Virus record (IMG/VR): IMGVR_UViG_2619619130_000001
Length of the DNA: 23,805 nt
DNA from: a virus
Lineage: Duplodnaviria > Heunggongvirae > Uroviricota > Caudoviricetes
Strand: one strand, 5' to 3'
In this document: in pieces, positions 1,163 through 12,002 of the stretch
Layout: the number at the start of each line of letters is the position of its first letter
Position numbering within the stretch: the first letter of the stretch is position 1
Notes under the pieces: model-generated
What the model saw: the letters and a program-made list of their open reading frames with translations, nothing else
Told to the model about the DNA's origin: nothing
Databases searched by the model: none
Translations under genes and position numbers: made by a program

Positions 1163-1510
1163 TTACTTATCACATAAATCAAATGCAGCCTTAGTGACAT
1201 CTCCCAGATTCTTTTTTAACCCTGGGGCGGCATCATTATCCAGCCAAAATGGATTATTGTTATCTAACGGTAACGCACCAAATGTTTTACCTTTTATTCG
1301 AGCCAAACCTGTAAGCGCATATAACTTATTATCGTCAAAATTCATCACATAAGGATTACCATCTAGACACTGTAACTGAACCTCATCAGTATTAAATGGC
1401 CATACCCCATTGAAACTCTCACGTTCAATATTTTTAAAAGGCATTGCGACGGCAGAAAAAGAAAACATAGATAAAAAAGTAACTAATAGTTGAACATTTT
1501 TTACTTTCAT
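1163..1510 (-). CDS. Small secreted protein (predicted signal peptide, two Cys), function unknown; cargo/moron
   Basis: 115 aa; N-terminus MKVKNVQLLVTFLSMFSFSAVA looks like a Sec signal peptide; AT-rich coding DNA unlike the phage core; same strand as int and repressor. Confidence 0.6.
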   Translation of the reverse strand: MKVKNVQLLVTFLSMFSFSAVAMPFKNIERESFNGVWPFNTDEVQLQCLDGNPYVMNFDDNKLYALTGLARIKGKTFGALPLDNNNPFWLDNDAAPGLKKNLGDVTKAAFDLCDK

Positions 1511-1539
1511 ACCATTACCTCAATTTAGCTCAAGTAAGA

Positions 1540-2190
1540 TTACAAATTAAAAAACATCCTAGAAATGGCACCACCTACCACCCCCCCTACGCAGATAAAG
1601 AATATTATTTCTTTTGGATAAAGTCGGATTAATTCTGAAGCACGAAGTCGGACTTCTGGTAAGGTCGAATTCTCTGTGTTGCTTGATACCGATTGTTGCT
1701 CTAACCACGACAATGCAGACTGCAACTGAGAACGAGTAAGATCGTTTAAACGTCCTGTACCGAAATTGATATGGCAATACCGCAGAAGTTTTTGTCGAAG
1801 TCCACAGTCTTCACTGTTACGTAGTAATAAACTTACAAGAGCCTTACAGGCATCATGATCTTTACATCGCTCAAGCATTGCATGCAGAAAACTCTCCGCT
1901 GTTTTATATTGATTTACTGTCATATCATCAATACCAGCTACACCAATCTCCGCATGTACTTTTTGCCAAATAATAAACGCTTCAGTATTGCTAGCTTCTG
2001 CAATAGCAGCAACCAAGCTATTTAGCTCCTTACGCTGAGCCTTAAGCAAAGGGCGATCGTCATCATCATTATTCGAAGGGATTGCGATATTGACGGTATG
2101 AGAACCATCATATCGCCCTATCTGAATATTCTTTTCGTGAAAATCACGCCCAGCAACGCGATTGTTTGAACCGTTTGAGTTGACGGCCAT
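1540..2190 (-). CDS. Tail-anchored membrane protein (single C-terminal TM helix), function unknown; cargo/moron
   Basis: 216 aa; acidic DDDD linker; hydrophobic C-terminus IIFFICVGGVVGGAISRMFF; AT-rich; its N-terminus repeats a motif from the repressor C-terminus. Confidence 0.6.
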   Translation of the reverse strand: MAVNSNGSNNRVAGRDFHEKNIQIGRYDGSHTVNIAIPSNNDDDDRPLLKAQRKELNSLVAAIAEASNTEAFIIWQKVHAEIGVAGIDDMTVNQYKTAESFLHAMLERCKDHDACKALVSLLLRNSEDCGLRQKLLRYCHINFGTGRLNDLTRSQLQSALSWLEQQSVSSNTENSTLPEVRLRASELIRLYPKEIIFFICVGGVVGGAISRMFFNL

Positions 2191-4669: not shown

Positions 4670-4810
4670 GCACCTCCAACTGCCGGAAACCACGTCGGGC
4701 TTCAGCAGCTCATCCGGCAGCAAAACAAACTCCGTTAATTCCTGTTCCGGGCCTTTCCTGCACCTTGCGGCAAGAGGCCTTCGCACATCTGCAACAAGAG
4801 GATTGCCGCA

Positions 4811-5176
4811 ATGATTCTCGCCGAAGACTTTTTTGATTACCTGCTGAAAACCGAGCGCGATTTTGGTATTCGCGTTCTCGACCGCTATGCAATGTATCTG
4901 AAATCACTGCCGGAACAGCAGCTCCCGGACGGCCAGATTGTTATTGACGGGCGCTACATGGTTGGTAGCTGCCAGGAGGATTACACACTTTCCCGCATCG
5001 AAAGCGGCACGCCTTCCGTACTGGGTATTTACCTGCGAACTTCATCTCTGATTGCTGATGTAATTGCTGACAGCATTCGCATAACACACCGTTATGCCAG
5101 CACAGAGAGCACCATGCAGGAAATCCAGCGGCTGGCTACCGTCTGCCACAATGCACTGAGCGGAAAGGCGGAGTAG
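4811..5176 (+). CDS. Hypothetical protein upstream of replication gene
   Basis: 121-aa ORF with plausible RBS; ends 6 nt before gene A. An alternative 56-aa ORF (4666-4836) overlaps its start. Confidence 0.45.
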   Translation: MILAEDFFDYLLKTERDFGIRVLDRYAMYLKSLPEQQLPDGQIVIDGRYMVGSCQEDYTLSRIESGTPSVLGIYLRTSSLIADVIADSIRITHRYASTESTMQEIQRLATVCHNALSGKAE

Positions 5177-5181
5177 TCGGC

Positions 5182-8004
5182 GTGGCAACGGAGTACATCA
5201 GAGACTGGCAACAACCACGCCATGCAGTCGGTGGCGAGGGAACGGGGGAGCCTGTCCGCCCCTCCCTTCTTTCTTCCTGGCTGGATGCCTACCGGGCAGA
5301 GAACGAGCGCCGCCAGGAAATGGCTGATGCGGCGTTCTCCGCTGCACCACTGGGCAATCTGATTAATAAAAGCCTGGACGCACAGGAAAAACAGGACAAA
5401 GCCATCACACTGGCAAGAGAAGCCAGAAAGCAGGCACGCGGTGCGGTGGATGAAGCCATGGCCTCGCTGCGTCTGCTGCCGTCCTATCTGCGTGATCCGC
5501 TTATCCGCCATCTCTCTTTCCTGCACAAAAAACAGGAATCTGGCCACCAGAAAGGCAAAAAGAACCAGCAGGCGGAACGCTATGCGAGCGGAACCCTGCG
5601 CAAAATATTCGAACGTCTGGCCCGCACCGACCGTCGCTGGCTGACTCCGGGTTATCGCTCCCTTGCCGGACGTGAACGTCTGGACGATTTGCTGTACCTG
5701 CCACAGCTCAACAAGCACCAGATACAGACGCTGGCCGTCATGACGGCGGCAATGTTCAGCAGCACCTTCGAAAAACTCTGCGATGGCTGTGGCGCGACCG
5801 ACGGCGAGCTGACCATGGATATAACGCTGAAGGCGTATCAGATGCTGGCCCGCATGGCGTTACATCTGCACACAGTGCCGCCGCATTATGACGCACTGAC
5901 AACAGACAAAGACCGGAAGAACGAACCGGACACGGAACTGCTGCCGGGTGCAATCCTCCGCCTGACCTGTGCGGACTGGTGGAAACGCAAACTGTGGCTT
6001 TTACGTTGCGAATGGAGAGAGGAACAACTCCGCGCTGCCTGTCTAGTTTCCAGAAAAACATCACCCTATCTGAGTCAGGACGCATTAAGTGAATTTCGCG
6101 CACAGCGCGAGAAAACACGCGATTTCCTGAAAAGTTTCATGCTGGAAAATGAAGACGGGTTCACGATTGATCTCGAGACAGTGTATTACGCGGGAGTAAG
6201 TAACCCGGTCCACCGTAAGGCAGAAATGATGGCCACCATGAAGGGACTGGAACTTCTGGCCGAAGCCCGTGGCGACAGAGCGGTGTTTCTGACTGTCACC
6301 TGCCCGTCAAAATACCACGCTACAACAGAGAACGGTCATCCGAATCCCAAATGGAACGGCGCCACCATGCGCGATTCCAGTGATTACCTGGTTAACACTT
6401 TTTTTAAGGCGGTCCGCAAAAAACTGAATCGCGACGGCCTGCGCTGGTATGGCATCCGCACGGTGGAGCCACACCATGACGGCACCGTGCACTGGCACAT
6501 GATGGTCTTTGCACATCCTGAAGAAATCGACAGCATCGTGGACATCACCCGTGATATTGCCATTCGCGAAGACCGCCACGAGCTGGGCAATGACATAACT
6601 CCGCGCTTTAAGGCAGAGTACGTCGACGGTTCGAAAGGTACGCCGACCAGCTACATCGCCACCTACATCGGAAAGAACCTGGACAGCCGCGCCGTGGATG
6701 GCATTGACCCGAAAACAGGCAAGCCACGCGTTGATCACGAAACCGGAAAATCAATGGCCGAGAGCGTGGAACGCGCCATCGGCTGGGCGCGCCTTCACCG
6801 CGTCCGCCAGTTCCAGTTCTTTGGTATCCCCTCCCGTCAGGTATGGCGTGAACTCCGCCGCCTTGCCAGTCAGATGGCCCGCAACCCGGAAGGTCCACAA
6901 CGTCTGGAAAATGACGCAATGGATGCGGTACTCGCTGCCGCTGATGCCGGGTGTTTTGCCACCTACATTGAGAAACAGGGTGGCGTACTTGTTCCACGCA
7001 AGGATTACCTGATTCGCACCGCCTACGACCTCGCAGAAGAGCTGAACGATTACGGCGAGCAAAGCGTACAGATTTACGGGATCTGGTCGCCACAAATCGG
7101 GGAATCTTCCCGCGTGTGCACGCACCCGGATAACTGGAAGCTGGTAAGACGTAAACCGGAAGCGGAAGACAGCGCCCGCGAAAATGGTTTTGACCTTCAG
7201 GGCGGCCCTGCCGCCCCTTGGACTCGTGGCAATAACTGTCCCCGTGTACAGGAAACGGACAACAACGGGACAGAACAGCCGGAAGAACGGCCATCACCGT
7301 GGCCGCAGCTTCCTGACGGCGTTGACGTGAATGAATGGATGCGCTCACTGAAACTGCACGAACGCCGGGCGCTGATGCGTTCGCTGCGTGACAAACAGGC
7401 AAAAAACAGCAGTGATGAAATGCAGAACTGGACACAGAGCCGCAAACAGCCACGGCCTTTGCCTGATAACCACGAGTTACTCGCTAAAGAATGGCGGGAG
7501 TCTGCTGAATCTCTCGGCCTGCATATCGGTGAACAGCAGATGCAGCACCTGTTACGGGGCGGCAGTCTGTACGTTGACGGCAGCATCATTGCACCGCAGG
7601 GATTTGAAATTGTACGCAAACCGGATACCCGCCCGGACAGCCGAATCACGCAGCTCTGGCAGCGCCTGAGCCGCAATCACGGCGTAAGCAGCACGGAGAT
7701 CCGCCATAACCCGGTCGCCAGCTATCTGGAACAGCTGGGGGCATCAGACCCCGAAGCCGCCGCACGCCTGGCATCCACACTTCAGCAGGACCAGAACACC
7801 ATGAAAACCCCCGTTACCGTGCTTTCTGACATGCTGCGCGCCATCCGTGACGCAGAGCACGCACAGAGAATCAGTGAAACCACTGAACGCGCCCACCGCA
7901 AAGCAGACCTGCTGCGGGGTAGCCTGACCAGTGGAAACAAAAAACAGACAGAAACGGGATTCACAAATCCCGTAAATGAGCAAAAAACGTGCCGCGATAT
8001 ATGA
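5182..8004 (+). CDS. A: Rolling-circle replication initiator / endonuclease (P2 gpA family)
   Basis: 940 aa; HxH metal motif (VHWHMMVFAH) and paired active-site tyrosines YIATYIGKN; position after early operon as in P2. Apparent GTG start at 5182. Confidence 0.88.
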   Translation: MATEYIRDWQQPRHAVGGEGTGEPVRPSLLSSWLDAYRAENERRQEMADAAFSAAPLGNLINKSLDAQEKQDKAITLAREARKQARGAVDEAMASLRLLPSYLRDPLIRHLSFLHKKQESGHQKGKKNQQAERYASGTLRKIFERLARTDRRWLTPGYRSLAGRERLDDLLYLPQLNKHQIQTLAVMTAAMFSSTFEKLCDGCGATDGELTMDITLKAYQMLARMALHLHTVPPHYDALTTDKDRKNEPDTELLPGAILRLTCADWWKRKLWLLRCEWREEQLRAACLVSRKTSPYLSQDALSEFRAQREKTRDFLKSFMLENEDGFTIDLETVYYAGVSNPVHRKAEMMATMKGLELLAEARGDRAVFLTVTCPSKYHATTENGHPNPKWNGATMRDSSDYLVNTFFKAVRKKLNRDGLRWYGIRTVEPHHDGTVHWHMMVFAHPEEIDSIVDITRDIAIREDRHELGNDITPRFKAEYVDGSKGTPTSYIATYIGKNLDSRAVDGIDPKTGKPRVDHETGKSMAESVERAIGWARLHRVRQFQFFGIPSRQVWRELRRLASQMARNPEGPQRLENDAMDAVLAAADAGCFATYIEKQGGVLVPRKDYLIRTAYDLAEELNDYGEQSVQIYGIWSPQIGESSRVCTHPDNWKLVRRKPEAEDSARENGFDLQGGPAAPWTRGNNCPRVQETDNNGTEQPEERPSPWPQLPDGVDVNEWMRSLKLHERRALMRSLRDKQAKNSSDEMQNWTQSRKQPRPLPDNHELLAKEWRESAESLGLHIGEQQMQHLLRGGSLYVDGSIIAPQGFEIVRKPDTRPDSRITQLWQRLSRNHGVSSTEIRHNPVASYLEQLGASDPEAAARLASTLQQDQNTMKTPVTVLSDMLRAIRDAEHAQRISETTERAHRKADLLRGSLTSGNKKQTETGFTNPVNEQKTCRDI

Positions 8005-8080: not shown

Positions 8081-9040
8081 ATGAAAATTTGTATCGACGA
8101 CGGCTCCACCAATATCAAGCTGGCATGGACTGAGAACGGCGAACGCCGCAACGCTATCAGCCCGAACAGCTTCAAGTCGGAATGGTCTGCGCCGTTCGGT
8201 GGCACGCAGCCCGCGAACTACATGCTTGATGGCGTGCGCTATGGTTTTGATCCGGTCAGCGATCGCTTTGTCCAGACGACCGACACGCAATACCAGTACA
8301 GCGATGTGAATGTCATTGCCATTCATCACGCGCTGGTCAAATCAGGCATCACACCACAGGAGGTGGATGTGGTTGTCACCCTGCCACTGAGCGAGTATTT
8401 CGACACAAACGCACAGCCGGACATGGCCAACATCAACCGCAAAAAAGCGAACGTTATGCGCCCGGTGGAGTACCAGAACGGCAAAGCATTCACTATCCGT
8501 AACGTACGGGTTATGCCTGAATCTATTCCGGCTGGCTTTAAAGCACTGGCTGACATGAGTCCGTTTGAATCCCTGCTGATTGTGGATTTAGGCGGAACCA
8601 CGCTGGATGTAGCAAAGGTTCAGGGACAACTGGCAGGTATCAGCCAGGTGTTTTGCGATCCACACGTAGGCGTTTCCCTGATGGCCGATGCAGTACTGTC
8701 GGTGATGGCCACTAACGGTATGCGTACCAGTCACCACATCGCCAATACCATTATCGAACATCGCCATGATGAAGCCTGGCTGCGCCAGCACATCCATAAT
8801 GACGCGCATTACGCCAGCCTGATGGCGGTTATTCGTGAAAAGGAAGAAACACTGAAACAACGCGTGATCCGCGCGCTGGCGGGTTTTTCGGGTTACGGGC
8901 GGGTGATGGTTGTCGGTGGCGGGGCGGAGATTGTGGCACCCGCTATCCGCGAAGCCTGCGGAGTTAATGCGACTTTCATCGCGGACGGGGGGCCACAGTT
9001 TGCTCTGGTTAATGGGCTGTACGCAATGGACAAGGAGTAA
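8081..9040 (+). CDS. parM: ParM/StbA-family actin-like segregation ATPase
   Basis: 319 aa; N-terminal CIDDGSTNIKLAW, SDVNVIAIHHAL, VMPESIPAG, LIVDLGGTTLDV and VMVVGGGAE motifs align along the length with plasmid R1 ParM as I remember it. Confidence 0.85.
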   Translation: MKICIDDGSTNIKLAWTENGERRNAISPNSFKSEWSAPFGGTQPANYMLDGVRYGFDPVSDRFVQTTDTQYQYSDVNVIAIHHALVKSGITPQEVDVVVTLPLSEYFDTNAQPDMANINRKKANVMRPVEYQNGKAFTIRNVRVMPESIPAGFKALADMSPFESLLIVDLGGTTLDVAKVQGQLAGISQVFCDPHVGVSLMADAVLSVMATNGMRTSHHIANTIIEHRHDEAWLRQHIHNDAHYASLMAVIREKEETLKQRVIRALAGFSGYGRVMVVGGGAEIVAPAIREACGVNATFIADGGPQFALVNGLYAMDKE

Positions 9041-9044
9041 ACCA

Positions 9045-9356
9045 ATGACGACTCCAACCAGACGGATAAGTTTCTATCTGAAGCCCGCCGCCGTCAAGAA
9101 CGAAGGAGAAGCATGCGCCTGGCTGGACAGCCTTACACCAGAAGCCCGCAAAAGCGGCCAACGCGTGGCTTTTCTGGCCGGGCTGGCACTTCTGAAAATG
9201 AATCCGGCAGAGGCTTACCGACTAGCTGCATGGGCTGATGATGAAGCGTTATCAGTGACACAAACCAGGACAGAACGCCCCGCATCACAGCCAGTATCAA
9301 CCGCACAGATAACCAGTCAGATGGCCGGAAATATCCGGGCGTTATTTCCTGAATAA
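9045..9356 (+). CDS. parR: ParR/StbB-like centromere-binding adaptor
   Basis: 104 aa from ATG 9045 (RBS AAGGAG); RRISFYLKP, WLDSLTPEARKSGQRVAFLAGLAL and C-terminal RALFPE resemble R1 ParR; directly follows parM. Confidence 0.72.
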   Translation: MTTPTRRISFYLKPAAVKNEGEACAWLDSLTPEARKSGQRVAFLAGLALLKMNPAEAYRLAAWADDEALSVTQTRTERPASQPVSTAQITSQMAGNIRALFPE

Positions 9357-9382: not shown

Positions 9383-9419
9383 CTCTCCACCTCAGAACAT
9401 AAACAAGGAGAACGACTTA

Positions 9420-9803
9420 ATGAGCGAAATCAACTATCAGGCATTACGTGAACGTTATTCACCTGTGCCAGTACCGAAATGCCCTATTTGCGGCGAGGAA
9501 ATGTCAATTCAGCGAATATCTGGAGCACAGGTTGTTTATGCCTGCTCCGGTTATGGTGATGATGGAGATTTCAAAATTGGTCGAACTCTTGCCGACGAAC
9601 ATTATGAAAAATCACGCGTAACAGTGTTGGATGTCGGGGATCCTGAAGTATTGGCGCTACTTGATTGGCTGGAAACCAAAGACAACCGAATCGCTGAACT
9701 GGAAAAAATCGCCACTGACTATGCACTTAAATTCCAGAAAGCACAGGACGCATTAAAGTACGCCGCTTTGCTGCATAGCAGGACAGCGCAGCTACAAGAC
9801 TAA
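9420..9803 (+). CDS. Hypothetical protein with CxxC zinc-ribbon-like motif and C-terminal coiled coil
   Basis: 127 aa; KCPICGEE...YACSG then heptad-like LDWLETKDNRIAELEKIATDYALKFQKAQDALKYAA; AAGGAG RBS; within the variable locus. Confidence 0.6.
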   Translation: MSEINYQALRERYSPVPVPKCPICGEEMSIQRISGAQVVYACSGYGDDGDFKIGRTLADEHYEKSRVTVLDVGDPEVLALLDWLETKDNRIAELEKIATDYALKFQKAQDALKYAALLHSRTAQLQD

Positions 9804-9893
9804 CTTAAAGCGGAAGATTAATACATGGTGAGTCAGGGTAATTTGTTTTTATCCCGACAAATAAACAAAAAAGTGGACTATCTCTGTAGTATC

Positions 9894-10424
9894 TTATTCA
9901 GCATCGTCTCGTGCAGTCTGTGCATACGTCACAACAACGCCCAATGCATTAGTTTTCTTTTCAACATAGATAATATTGTCATATTCATAGTTACCATACG
10001 GATAGCAAATAAGAATATTTTTATGCAGATCGGGATCATCAACAAACGCTCCGGAACAGCTTCTTGAACTACCGGATGTATACTCATACGGTGCAACATA
10101 TGATGATGTTACTCCTGGTAAAAAATAAGTCACCATCATAAGAGGGATAATCAGGAATATCCCTGTAAGAATGCAAGAGCCAGCATAAACCTTCAGGTAT
10201 TCCGACAGTCCTTTCCAGCCACTTTGCTTCACTACCCCCCTCTTCACCAGAAACAAGGAGAAGAAAAAGGACATACCCATACTACACAAGATGTAATAAT
10301 TGGATATACGCGAATTAAGATATGTAATCCTGTAGATATCTGCCCTCCACCAGTAAAAGAGGAAAATAATCCCTAGCACTGAAACAGTCATGCAAATCAA
10401 ATAAGGATATGAATCTTTCTTCAT
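9894..10424 (-). CDS. Integral membrane protein (about 3 TM helices + ~70-aa soluble C-terminal domain), function unknown; candidate exclusion/abortive-infection cargo
   Basis: 176 aa; hydrophobic segments LICMTVSVLGIIFLFYWW, YYILCSMGMSFFFSLFLV, AGSCILTGIFLIIPLMMVTYFL; strongly AT-rich unlike flanking phage DNA; convergent with the preceding gene. Confidence 0.65.
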   Translation of the reverse strand: MKKDSYPYLICMTVSVLGIIFLFYWWRADIYRITYLNSRISNYYILCSMGMSFFFSLFLVKRGVVKQSGWKGLSEYLKVYAGSCILTGIFLIIPLMMVTYFLPGVTSSYVAPYEYTSGSSRSCSGAFVDDPDLHKNILICYPYGNYEYDNIIYVEKKTNALGVVVTYAQTARDDAE

Positions 10425-10772
10425 GTCTTGCGCTCATTAAAATTTCCCTGCTACGAACAAATTTACCATCCGTTTTTTGCGCAGAAAACAGCACGATGCA
10501 CACTGCACGATAGTGCACAAATTTGCACAATTTTTTTGAACGACTTTTTACCCTTCCGGCCCGCATGGCGGCTGGATCCGTCAAGGATCCGTGCGTGCAC
10601 AAAAAAACGCGTTTTTTCTGCGCGCAGGTGACGGGGGAACAGCCCGCGTTTCAGGGGGTAAATAGCATTCCCTGAACGATGTCGCAGAGACACAACAGAA
10701 TGGCTGTATTTCTCACGCTGAGCGTGAAAAATACGTGAGGGATTCTGATTTGATGGGGTGAAAGGTAAGGCC

Positions 10773-10794
10773 GTCAAAATCGCACTGAGGCGGC
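10773..10794. other. Candidate cos (cohesive end) site
   Basis: GAGGCGGCAAAGAAC resembles the P2 cos sequence as I recall it (GGCGAGGCGGGGAAAGCAC) and lies ~165 bp beyond the Q stop, where P2 places cos. From memory, unverified. Confidence 0.3.
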
Positions 10795-10902
10795 AAAGAA
10801 CATGCAGTCAACGCGGTGGGATTGCGTAAGAGTCTGACCGCCGATGATGGCAATAAGCAGAAAAGCGTCGTGAAATTATCTGATTGATACAGGAGCTGGA
10901 GA

Positions 10903-10931
10903 GCCGGGGCATAAATTTTTTATGCCCCGGC
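10903..10931 (-). terminator. Strong hairpin just downstream of Q (likely terminator of the leftward P-Q transcript)
   Basis: GCCGGGGCATAAA-TTT-TTTATGCCCCGGC, 13-bp perfect stem, located 25 bp past the Q stop. Confidence 0.45.
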
Positions 10932-10955
10932 GAAGCAGCAGACAAGCGAAGCGCG

Positions 10956-12002
10956 TCAGGATGTGGGCTGGGTATCTAACAGTGCGTAAGGGTTAAAGCG
11001 GATCACCTCTTCGCCAAGCCAGTCATTGATGTGCTTCATGGCCTCCATGACGGGCATCAGCTCGTTAATTGCGTAAACCCGCGCGGCCTTCTCCACATCA
11101 CCAAACGCACTTTTTTCACCCGGCATCGCCCCCATCAGTTGCGGCGGAACGCGGTGCGCAGCCAGCACATCATCACGGGATGCCGCCTTAACATTCATGA
11201 ACTCATCCTTTGCGGTGATCTGCTGGAACGGCAAAATTTGCACCCCCTCTTTGCCCCCGTTGGGCGCATGAATGAGCACGTTTTTAAACGCACCGCCACC
11301 ACGTGCACCCTGTAGCGTTTCTTTCAGGGAGTCCATGCTTTCGCGGTTTACCTGCGCTGCACCGATGTAGATGATGCACCCGGCGTGGGATCCGTTGTCG
11401 TAATACAGTTTTCTGAACATGTCCGCCGAATGAGACAGGCTGGCCGAGAGTAATGCGCCGAGATATTCCGGCATGCCGTAGATTTCCTGGTTAATGTCAG
11501 GATTCATCAGGTGGCACACTTTGCCAGGGCGAAACTGGAACGCATCCTTGCCATCCTGCACATACCACCATGATTCAAGATCGCTACCGCGTCGCATGTA
11601 TTTCGCCAGGGCGTGCCGTAATTTAAGCGGTTCGCCGAGCATATTGCTTCGAAGCTCAAGGAATGCGTTACCGAACACAAACCAGTCCAGCGCCAGCGCC
11701 GAGAAATCCTGCCGGGAAAGCAGCGGGTGCGGGATGTAGCAACCGAGTAATACATTGCGCTTAAAGTAAAGCGCAGACTGATGCCAGGACGTTTGCCGGG
11801 CAGCTCTTGCCAGACCGTACCAGTCCACCGGGGTTTCATACCACCGCCCGTTATCAGCACAGTACATATTGTCCAGCAGGTCATGCCCGGTCAGGCGATA
11901 AGGACCATCAAATGTGAATGCACTGAGCGACGATTCTTTCCTGAGCGCATCAGCGAGATCAATGCGTGAACTCATGCGCACTTTTTTATTTTTTCTGCTC
12001 AT
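10956..12002 (-). CDS. Q: Portal protein (P2 gpQ family)
   Basis: 348 aa (P2 Q about 344 aa); second gene of leftward P-Q pair; overlaps P stop by 1 nt. Confidence 0.85.
   Translation of the reverse strand: MSRKNKKVRMSSRIDLADALRKESSLSAFTFDGPYRLTGHDLLDNMYCADNGRWYETPVDWYGLARAARQTSWHQSALYFKRNVLLGCYIPHPLLSRQDFSALALDWFVFGNAFLELRSNMLGEPLKLRHALAKYMRRGSDLESWWYVQDGKDAFQFRPGKVCHLMNPDINQEIYGMPEYLGALLSASLSHSADMFRKLYYDNGSHAGCIIYIGAAQVNRESMDSLKETLQGARGGGAFKNVLIHAPNGGKEGVQILPFQQITAKDEFMNVKAASRDDVLAAHRVPPQLMGAMPGEKSAFGDVEKAARVYAINELMPVMEAMKHINDWLGEEVIRFNPYALLDTQPTS

Follow-up and report, generated by a model that had tools for sequence, protein, structure and literature searches.

A three-helix membrane protein with a predicted periplasmic domain, encoded beside cos in a P2-like Escherichia coli prophage, is a candidate phage-exclusion factor

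We analysed a 23,805-nucleotide stretch of viral DNA (IMG/VR record IMGVR_UViG_2619619130_000001; hereafter, the window) around a gene for a small membrane protein. The window is 100% identical to a region of the E. coli H3 chromosome (NZ_CP010167), a P2-like (P88-type) prophage whose insertion site adjoins yecA and tyrP. The local order is gpA, ParM/StbB, an Ead/Ea22-like gene, the membrane gene, ~530 bp containing cos, gpQ and terminase. One boundary of the variable interval is the P2-type replication endonuclease gpA (5182..8004, plus strand), assigned from the RefSeq annotation of the identical H3 region; the other is the portal gpQ (10956..12002, minus strand), assigned from the ORF list and the RefSeq annotation. 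A putative cos core, GGTGACGGGGGAACAGCCC (10627..10645), resembles P2 cosL, GGCGAGGCGGGGAAAGCAC, and lies ~200 bp upstream of the membrane-gene ATG. The cos-like segment is also conserved in a Salmonella P2-like locus (L006). The truncated Ead/Ea22-like gene (9420–9803, plus strand; Pfam E=2.7e-29), which PGAP labels 'missing C-terminus', and the membrane gene run towards each other. Genes of the Ea22 type belong to the lambdoid early-left region; this one lies in a P2-like phage, and the same fragment, with 98.7% identity, occurs in Xuanwuvirus P884B11, which has no membrane gene.

The membrane gene occupies 9894..10424 on the minus strand, with its ATG at 10424 and its stop codon at 9894–9896. 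It encodes an intact accessory ('moron') protein of 176 aa that belongs to PHROG 1416. The initial annotation had placed the gene at 9825–10424 and given no strand. The gene and its right end stand, whereas the true left end is 9894: an unrelated plus-strand ORF of 80 aa, antisense to the membrane gene, begins at position 9825, and 9825–9893 is the 3′ flank. The description of the gene as far more AT-rich than its surroundings is borne out by a GC content of 38.8% (GC3 40.1%), compared with 52.5% in the window and 54–57% in the neighbours A, parM, portal and terminase. The recent acquisition that had been read from this composition is unsupported as stated: dS between the window allele and the allele of lambdoid phage 434 is ~1.2 and saturated, so that any exchange between P2-like and lambdoid lineages would be old. 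Between the same two alleles, dN/dS is 0.10 for the whole gene, 0.11 for the transmembrane (TM) part and 0.08 for the C-terminal domain. The start, the three helices and the C-terminal motifs are shared by full-length relatives with as little as 27% identity. The gene is thus real and coding, above chance expectation.

This conclusion conflicts with RefSeq, where PGAP records 9894..10469 as 'hypothetical protein, frameshifted' in E. coli H3, RM8352 and 14EC020. Taken at face value, the label describes a decaying frameshifted pseudogene, a reading that we find scarcely credible and have dropped in view of the intact ORF, the common start and purifying selection. All 27 aligned relatives (27–78% identity) begin with MKKxSY and measure 166–189 aa, and they include members from Salmonella, Enterobacter, Proteus, Providencia and Pseudomonas. 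The 'missing' N-terminus is present only in annotations of the E. coli/Shigella lambdoid allele, whose 191-, 200-, 207- and 223-aa versions differ solely by read-through of the leader; this N-terminal extension overlaps a conserved promoter-like motif. Inside the upstream 'extension' of the window allele, in-frame TAA TGA stops occur at 10434–10439. The uninterrupted 176-aa ORF, the shared MKKxSY start, the restriction of the extension to lambdoid annotations and the dN/dS of 0.10 together indicate, at the level of sequence, that the 'frameshifted' label is an annotation artefact. RefSeq assigns the lambdoid allele 200 aa, over-extended by 24 codons, and both this call and the frameshifted one appear to stem from an over-long reference start running through the leader and candidate promoter. 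Other gene calls shorten the same ORF to 81, 112 or 128 aa. The RefSeq miscalls of the P2-like and lambdoid alleles hide the family from comparative screens.

The initial annotation had predicted about three TM helices, in agreement with the hydrophobic segments at aa 8–26, 42–60 and 79–102, which reach Kyte–Doolittle 19-residue means of 1.5–2.35. TM helix 1 (10347..10403, minus strand) is predicted to pass from cytoplasm to periplasm on the basis of hydropathy, the positive-inside rule and an AF2 helix spanning aa 5–33. TM helix 2 (10245..10301, minus strand) is delimited by hydropathy, AF2 and the family alignment, and TM helix 3 (10119..10190, minus strand) by hydropathy and K+R counts. The predicted periplasmic loop before TM helix 2 carries the motif IYRxTFL (aa 30–36), of which T34 and L36 are invariant among close relatives, and a basic loop assigned to the cytoplasm, KRGVVKQSGWKGLSEYLK (5 K/R), precedes TM helix 3. 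Averaged over 27 members, K+R counts are 4.2 for loop 2, 1.85 for loop 1 and 5.8 for the N-terminus and loop 2 together. Applied across these members, the positive-inside rule predicts a topology with the N-terminus in and the C-terminus out.

Behind the third helix lies a hydrophilic tail of 73 aa with 9 Tyr and 5 Gly, matching the ~70-aa Tyr/Gly-rich C-terminal domain noted initially. The domain (aa 103–176; 9897..10118, minus strand) is predicted to be periplasmic and to fold into a five-stranded OB-like β-barrel. AF2 modelling of the whole protein (pLDDT 74.9) produced three long helices, the β-domain and a short strand at aa 34–36 within RxTFL. Modelled alone from 28 diverse sequences, the C-terminal domain reached a pLDDT of 93.4 and a pTM of 0.79, with five strands. 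Residues C123, G125, C140 and G162 are invariant in both the 27- and the 28-sequence alignments, and C123 and C140 flank the β2–β3 hairpin in the domain model. An out-facing topology and a conserved Cys pair, the two features expected of a periplasmic disulfide-bonded domain, are both found in the sequence; given the placement of the cysteines around the hairpin in this orientation, the domain is probably periplasmic and disulfide bonded. All invariant residues fall in this predicted periplasmic domain, where dN/dS is 0.08, which argues that the periplasmic face is the functional one. Neither a Foldseek search of BFVD nor a PDB sequence-profile search returned a significant fold relative. The closest candidate folds are OB-fold or cold-shock-like small β-barrels, including the membrane-anchored DUF1093 (3npp) and YhhM/DUF2500 (3q6c).

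PHROG 1416, annotated as of unknown function, is the sole family match (E=1.6e-45, 153.9 bits), aligning aa 90–175 with profile positions 2–87 of 90. The match is direct, yet the 90-position profile covers only the last TM helix and the C-terminal domain, whereas the real protein has two further conserved TM helices; the short profile reflects truncated gene calls such as the 81-, 112- and 128-aa annotations. Pfam and NCBIfam gave no match (best Pfam E=0.009, below threshold), and none of the 5,027 defence-protein models in PADLOC-DB v2 matched at E<=1. Homology to a transporter subunit or a lysis protein, named initially as grounds for abandoning the proposed role in defence, did not appear in Pfam, NCBIfam, PHROG, PADLOC or the PDB profile search. 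An exhaustive profile search of 1.84 billion cluster representatives recovered 58 proteins at E<=0.001, and the source names of relatives are only 'hypothetical', 'transmembrane' or 'membrane protein'. No paper was recovered by a full-text search with the RefSeq accession, the announcement of the phage 434 genome leaves the gene undiscussed, and literature searches on phage 434 exclusion and on lambdoid membrane accessory genes turned up nothing on it. One further similarity was set aside as probably spurious likeness around a Cys-containing β-repeat: in a 3,074-aa repeat protein (P0102), 11 stretches match family-profile positions 125–165 (E=1.6e-10). Its repeats contain 'EPACDGVVCTLPITNWD', and Pfam gives them only sub-threshold Ig- or adhesin-like matches.

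Among complete E. coli genomes the gene is common: 999 of 5,426 (~18%) carry it, 77 with the P2-like allele (>=99% identity) and ~918 with a 78–79% allele. E. coli O157:H7 carries it in the prophage at ybhC, and Shigella sonnei and Salmonella are among the carriers. By comparison, only 5 of 50,697 phage records have it. A scan of GTDB representative genomes found two loci only, one of them on a probable contaminant contig from a 'Candidatus Nanosynbacter' MAG (JARKOR010000073.1, locus L013). This 3.5-kb contig carries an E. coli lambdoid cassette consisting of a 56-aa ORF, the membrane gene (79% identity), a TraR-like gene and exo (97–98% identity), and is almost certainly coliphage or E. coli contamination in a Saccharibacteria MAG bin.

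Marker mapping on 93 loci revealed only two arrangements in enterobacteria. In P2-like prophages of E. coli, Salmonella and Citrobacter, the gene always lies between portal and gpA and always points from cos towards gpA. Relatives with 51–80% identity occupy this same hotspot in Salmonella, Citrobacter and other P2-like prophages, where the neighbours differ: ParM/StbB and the Ea22 fragment in E. coli; small ORFs of 81, 119–123 and 100–139 aa, or a YafO toxin, in Salmonella. Because these neighbours vary among P2-like loci, the membrane gene is the sole constant, has no conserved partner and would act alone. Five Salmonella P2-like loci (L005, L008, L009, L010 and L012) have extra ORFs at ~7100–7890, of 81 or 123 aa together with one of 119 aa; they lie on the same strand between portal/cos and the membrane gene, lack Pfam matches and are present in some prophages only.

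The second arrangement is lambdoid. Phages 434, 2B8 and mEp332 carry a 79.5%-identical allele and, together with many prophages, have it between xis and exo, antisense to the pL operon, a classic accessory-gene arrangement. A 56-aa ORF annotated as a 'putative membrane protein' almost always precedes the gene on the same strand in lambdoid phages (~65 loci; 4755–4925 in phage 434, L001); no P2-like context has this ORF. It could represent a partner peculiar to lambdoid phages, or no more than a piece of the leader. Distant members occur elsewhere: between antiterminator Q and holin in Providencia lambdoid prophages, beside a type I R-M operon (hsdRMS) in Pseudomonas poae, and beside an MliC lysozyme-inhibitor gene, near an Imm33-like gene, in Proteus mirabilis. 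Counting the P2-like hotspot, copies occupy three distinct accessory positions across two lineages of temperate phage. The initial annotation had proposed looking for relatives in defence islands; what the mapping yielded were two further, lambdoid accessory sites and the type I R-M neighbour. The gene therefore behaves as a self-contained cassette, moving between accessory sites in temperate phages that are not related to one another and the chromosomal surroundings of an R-M system.

Part of this evidence bears on whether the product acts in phage defence at all. A membrane anchor joined to a small disulfide-bonded periplasmic domain resembles the colicin M immunity protein Cmi and lysozyme inhibitors. 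The window protein, with its membrane anchor and small predicted disulfide-bonded domain, could accordingly be a lysogenic-conversion envelope protein unrelated to defence: an orphan immunity protein against a periplasm-acting bacteriocin or T6SS effector, an inhibitor of peptidoglycan hydrolases, or a stress or colonisation factor. The Proteus homologue next to MliC and near Imm33 is in keeping with such a role, as are the strong purifying selection, which fits a conserved target, and the virulence-type accessory genes (NleC and NleH fragments) near the gene in phage 434. However, a toxin gene is linked to it in no phage context, known immunity and inhibitor families show no sequence or fold match to it, and its presence at three phage accessory sites and beside an R-M system points more to phage–phage conflict. 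On balance, we consider this envelope role somewhat unlikely.

In P2-like prophages, the gene has the orientation of the late P–Q operon, and a consensus scan detected no terminator-like site on its strand in the stretch separating it from Q, so that late read-through is possible. Together with the Providencia copy directly between antiterminator Q and the holin–endolysin cassette, this could suggest a role in the phage's own lytic cycle, as a lysis regulator, an antiholin or a helper of DNA exit or entry. Such a role is very unlikely in our estimation: most P2-like and lambdoid phages lack the gene, P2, P88 and lambda among them, as do nearly all of the phage records surveyed above; it is antisense to the early-left operon in lambdoid phages; it matches no holin or antiholin family; and the prophage has a complete lysis cassette elsewhere, with holin, endolysin and LysB/C annotated downstream of the head genes. 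The holin reading in particular was rejected after Pfam, NCBIfam and PHROG returned no lysis match (holin, antiholin or spanin).

A separate promoter is suggested by the region upstream of the gene. Alignment of the window, phage 434, mEp332 and Salmonella sequences showed that ~100 bp of upstream DNA moves with the gene between P2-like and lambdoid phages. This block (10425..10530, minus strand) comprises the leader, a candidate promoter and TGTGCA repeats. The candidate extended −10 element, TGGTAAATT (10460..10468, minus strand), lies 44 nt upstream of the ATG, and the pattern TG[GA]TAA[AT]TT recurs in 88 of the 94 copies of the gene, 43–47 nt upstream of the ATG, divergent Salmonella alleles included. 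We infer a promoter element from this conservation; a consensus promoter scan found no full sigma-70 site around the gene, and a consensus terminator scan found no minus-strand terminator flanking it. The interval from Q through cos to the gene is too divergent from the P2 Q–cos–old interval to be aligned for promoter homology. Just upstream of the candidate −10 element (10495–10535, minus strand) lie TGTGCA-like motifs, TTGTGCAAATTTGTGCACTATCGTGCAGTGTGCATCGTGC, spaced by ~10 bp and partly conserved in phage 434 and Salmonella P2-like loci. A plus-strand 'terminator-like' match at 10513–10528 is the palindrome of this run, which could be a regulator-binding array.

The position of the gene was the initial argument for a superinfection-exclusion or abortive-infection effector, and published work upholds that argument. 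The cos-proximal interval between gpA and gpQ is a defence hotspot of P2-like phages and houses P2 old and tin; across 18,150 hotspot occurrences, Rousset et al. counted 1,650 gene arrangements, rich in defence systems (PMC9122126). Small multi-TM effectors, which are common in defence systems, have been noted among those of the hotspot (PMC9122126). At the P2-like locus, 19% of elements contain only unknown genes, and in P4 satellites six of eight randomly chosen loci of unknown function protected against phage when tested (PMC13586616). The membrane gene lies between gpA and gpQ beside the putative cos, where the cargo of P2-like hotspots is found. Its presence also varies as expected of such cargo: P88-type phages are 93–99% identical to the window over 10501–10960 and 9400–9790, yet have no membrane gene, and only 62 of 1,293 matching E. 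coli genomes cover >=80% of 9400–10960. Gene content here therefore differs among otherwise related phages.

Position and orientation match those of P2 old/tin, whose mRNA starts ~150–170 bp from cosR and reads towards A according to the P2 record. Both are non-essential cargo in the interval from gpA to cos/gpQ with a cos-proximal start directed towards A (PMC9122126), but there is no sequence relationship between them. The window encodes a three-TM membrane protein with a predicted periplasmic domain and no PADLOC match, whereas Old is a cytoplasmic ATPase–nuclease and Tin a soluble protein.

An architectural parallel is P22 SieA, an inner-membrane protein of 162–164 aa (~160–175 aa) with three predicted TM helices that blocks DNA injection and is encoded by a single prophage gene with its own promoter (PMC10883804). 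The likeness is one of shared architecture only, namely size (~160 aa), three TM helices and inner-membrane location. SieA is found only between genes 16 and 9 of P22-like phages and has a conserved motif, FxRYPxEAxxFNK, near its C-terminus in a region predicted to be cytoplasmic (PMC10883804). In the window protein, by contrast, the conserved module is the C-terminal, predicted periplasmic β-barrel, and the SieA motif occurs neither in the 176-aa sequence nor in the family consensus. Aligning the family profile with P22 SieA in hhalign gave a probability of 0.4% (E=0.17). Homology to SieA was rejected on these grounds. The gene thus parallels P2 old/tin in position and P22 SieA in architecture, and belongs to neither family. 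With no PADLOC defence model and no homology to P22 SieA to draw on, the reserve with which the initial annotation offered its functional assignment remains appropriate.

The analyses above support an intact gene, the topology and fold of its product, its mobility between accessory sites and its purifying selection, and establish it as a genuine, widespread prophage accessory gene in a known defence hotspot; its link to defence is one of association. From this context, superinfection exclusion at the envelope or at DNA entry is the likeliest role, an assignment that we make tentatively, and the gene is a reasonable candidate for blocking other phages. We infer expression in lysogeny, anti-phage activity and the point of action as follows. 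The stand-alone accessory gene of a P2-like prophage would probably be transcribed in the lysogen from its own cos-proximal promoter. Its product would sit in the inner membrane with a cytoplasmic N-terminus and three TM helices, and its small disulfide-stabilised OB-like β-barrel would pack with the conserved first periplasmic loop. This periplasmic module may bind a conserved host entry component or the ejection or tail-tip apparatus of an incoming phage, thereby stopping other phages at the envelope, or as their DNA enters, and so shielding the lysogen. The strong purifying selection suggests that the module binds something conserved, whether a host component or a part of the phage entry machinery.

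Abortive infection would share the same hotspot position. Here, the periplasmic domain would sense a cue, and the TM helices would oligomerise to breach the inner membrane or collapse its potential, so that the infected cell dies; the occurrence of small multi-TM effectors in hotspot systems lends this model some plausibility. Yet no sensor or partner gene is conserved beside the membrane gene in P2-like contexts, and conservation is dominated by the folded periplasmic domain rather than the TM helices; for these two reasons we favour exclusion. No PADLOC effector model matches, and carriage is constitutive: 18% of complete E. coli genomes have the gene, and no neighbour of it looks like an antitoxin. 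We therefore judge abortive infection unlikely; although sequence alone does not distinguish it from exclusion, the features above lean toward an envelope-level block.

If exclusion is indeed the function, the family could represent a new class in which a membrane-anchored, Tyr-rich periplasmic OB-like domain engages the genome-delivery conduit or a universal inner-membrane entry factor. The conduit would then be tape-measure or ejection proteins, or the DNA itself, and the new class would span P2-like and lambdoid prophages in ~18% of E. coli genomes, with O157:H7 and phage 434 among its carriers. This more specific version is speculative and, in our view, improbable as it stands. Should the protein prove to be a defence or exclusion factor, it would be among the commonest uncharacterised ones in E. 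coli, and it would account for some of the P2-like hotspots, roughly one-fifth, in which no defence gene can be recognised. Testing it is easy, since it is one small gene whose compact periplasmic domain is modelled with confidence.

Two other features of the prophage deserve mention. A second AT-rich accessory block (1163–2190, minus strand; GC 36–40%) lies between the integrase and a repressor-like HTH gene and encodes a 216-aa protein with no Pfam or PADLOC match and a DUF2511 protein of 115 aa. Within the hotspot itself, the genes at 8081–9356 (plus strand) encode ParM (StbA_N, E=3.8e-82; ParM C-terminal domain, E=2.5e-68) and an StbB-like protein (Plasmid_stab_B, E=1.6e-24). Together they make up a complete partition module of plasmid type, here in the hotspot of an integrated P2-like prophage, and are conserved with the membrane gene in the E. 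coli allele. The module might reflect a phage lineage able to persist as a plasmid, or it might have another role.
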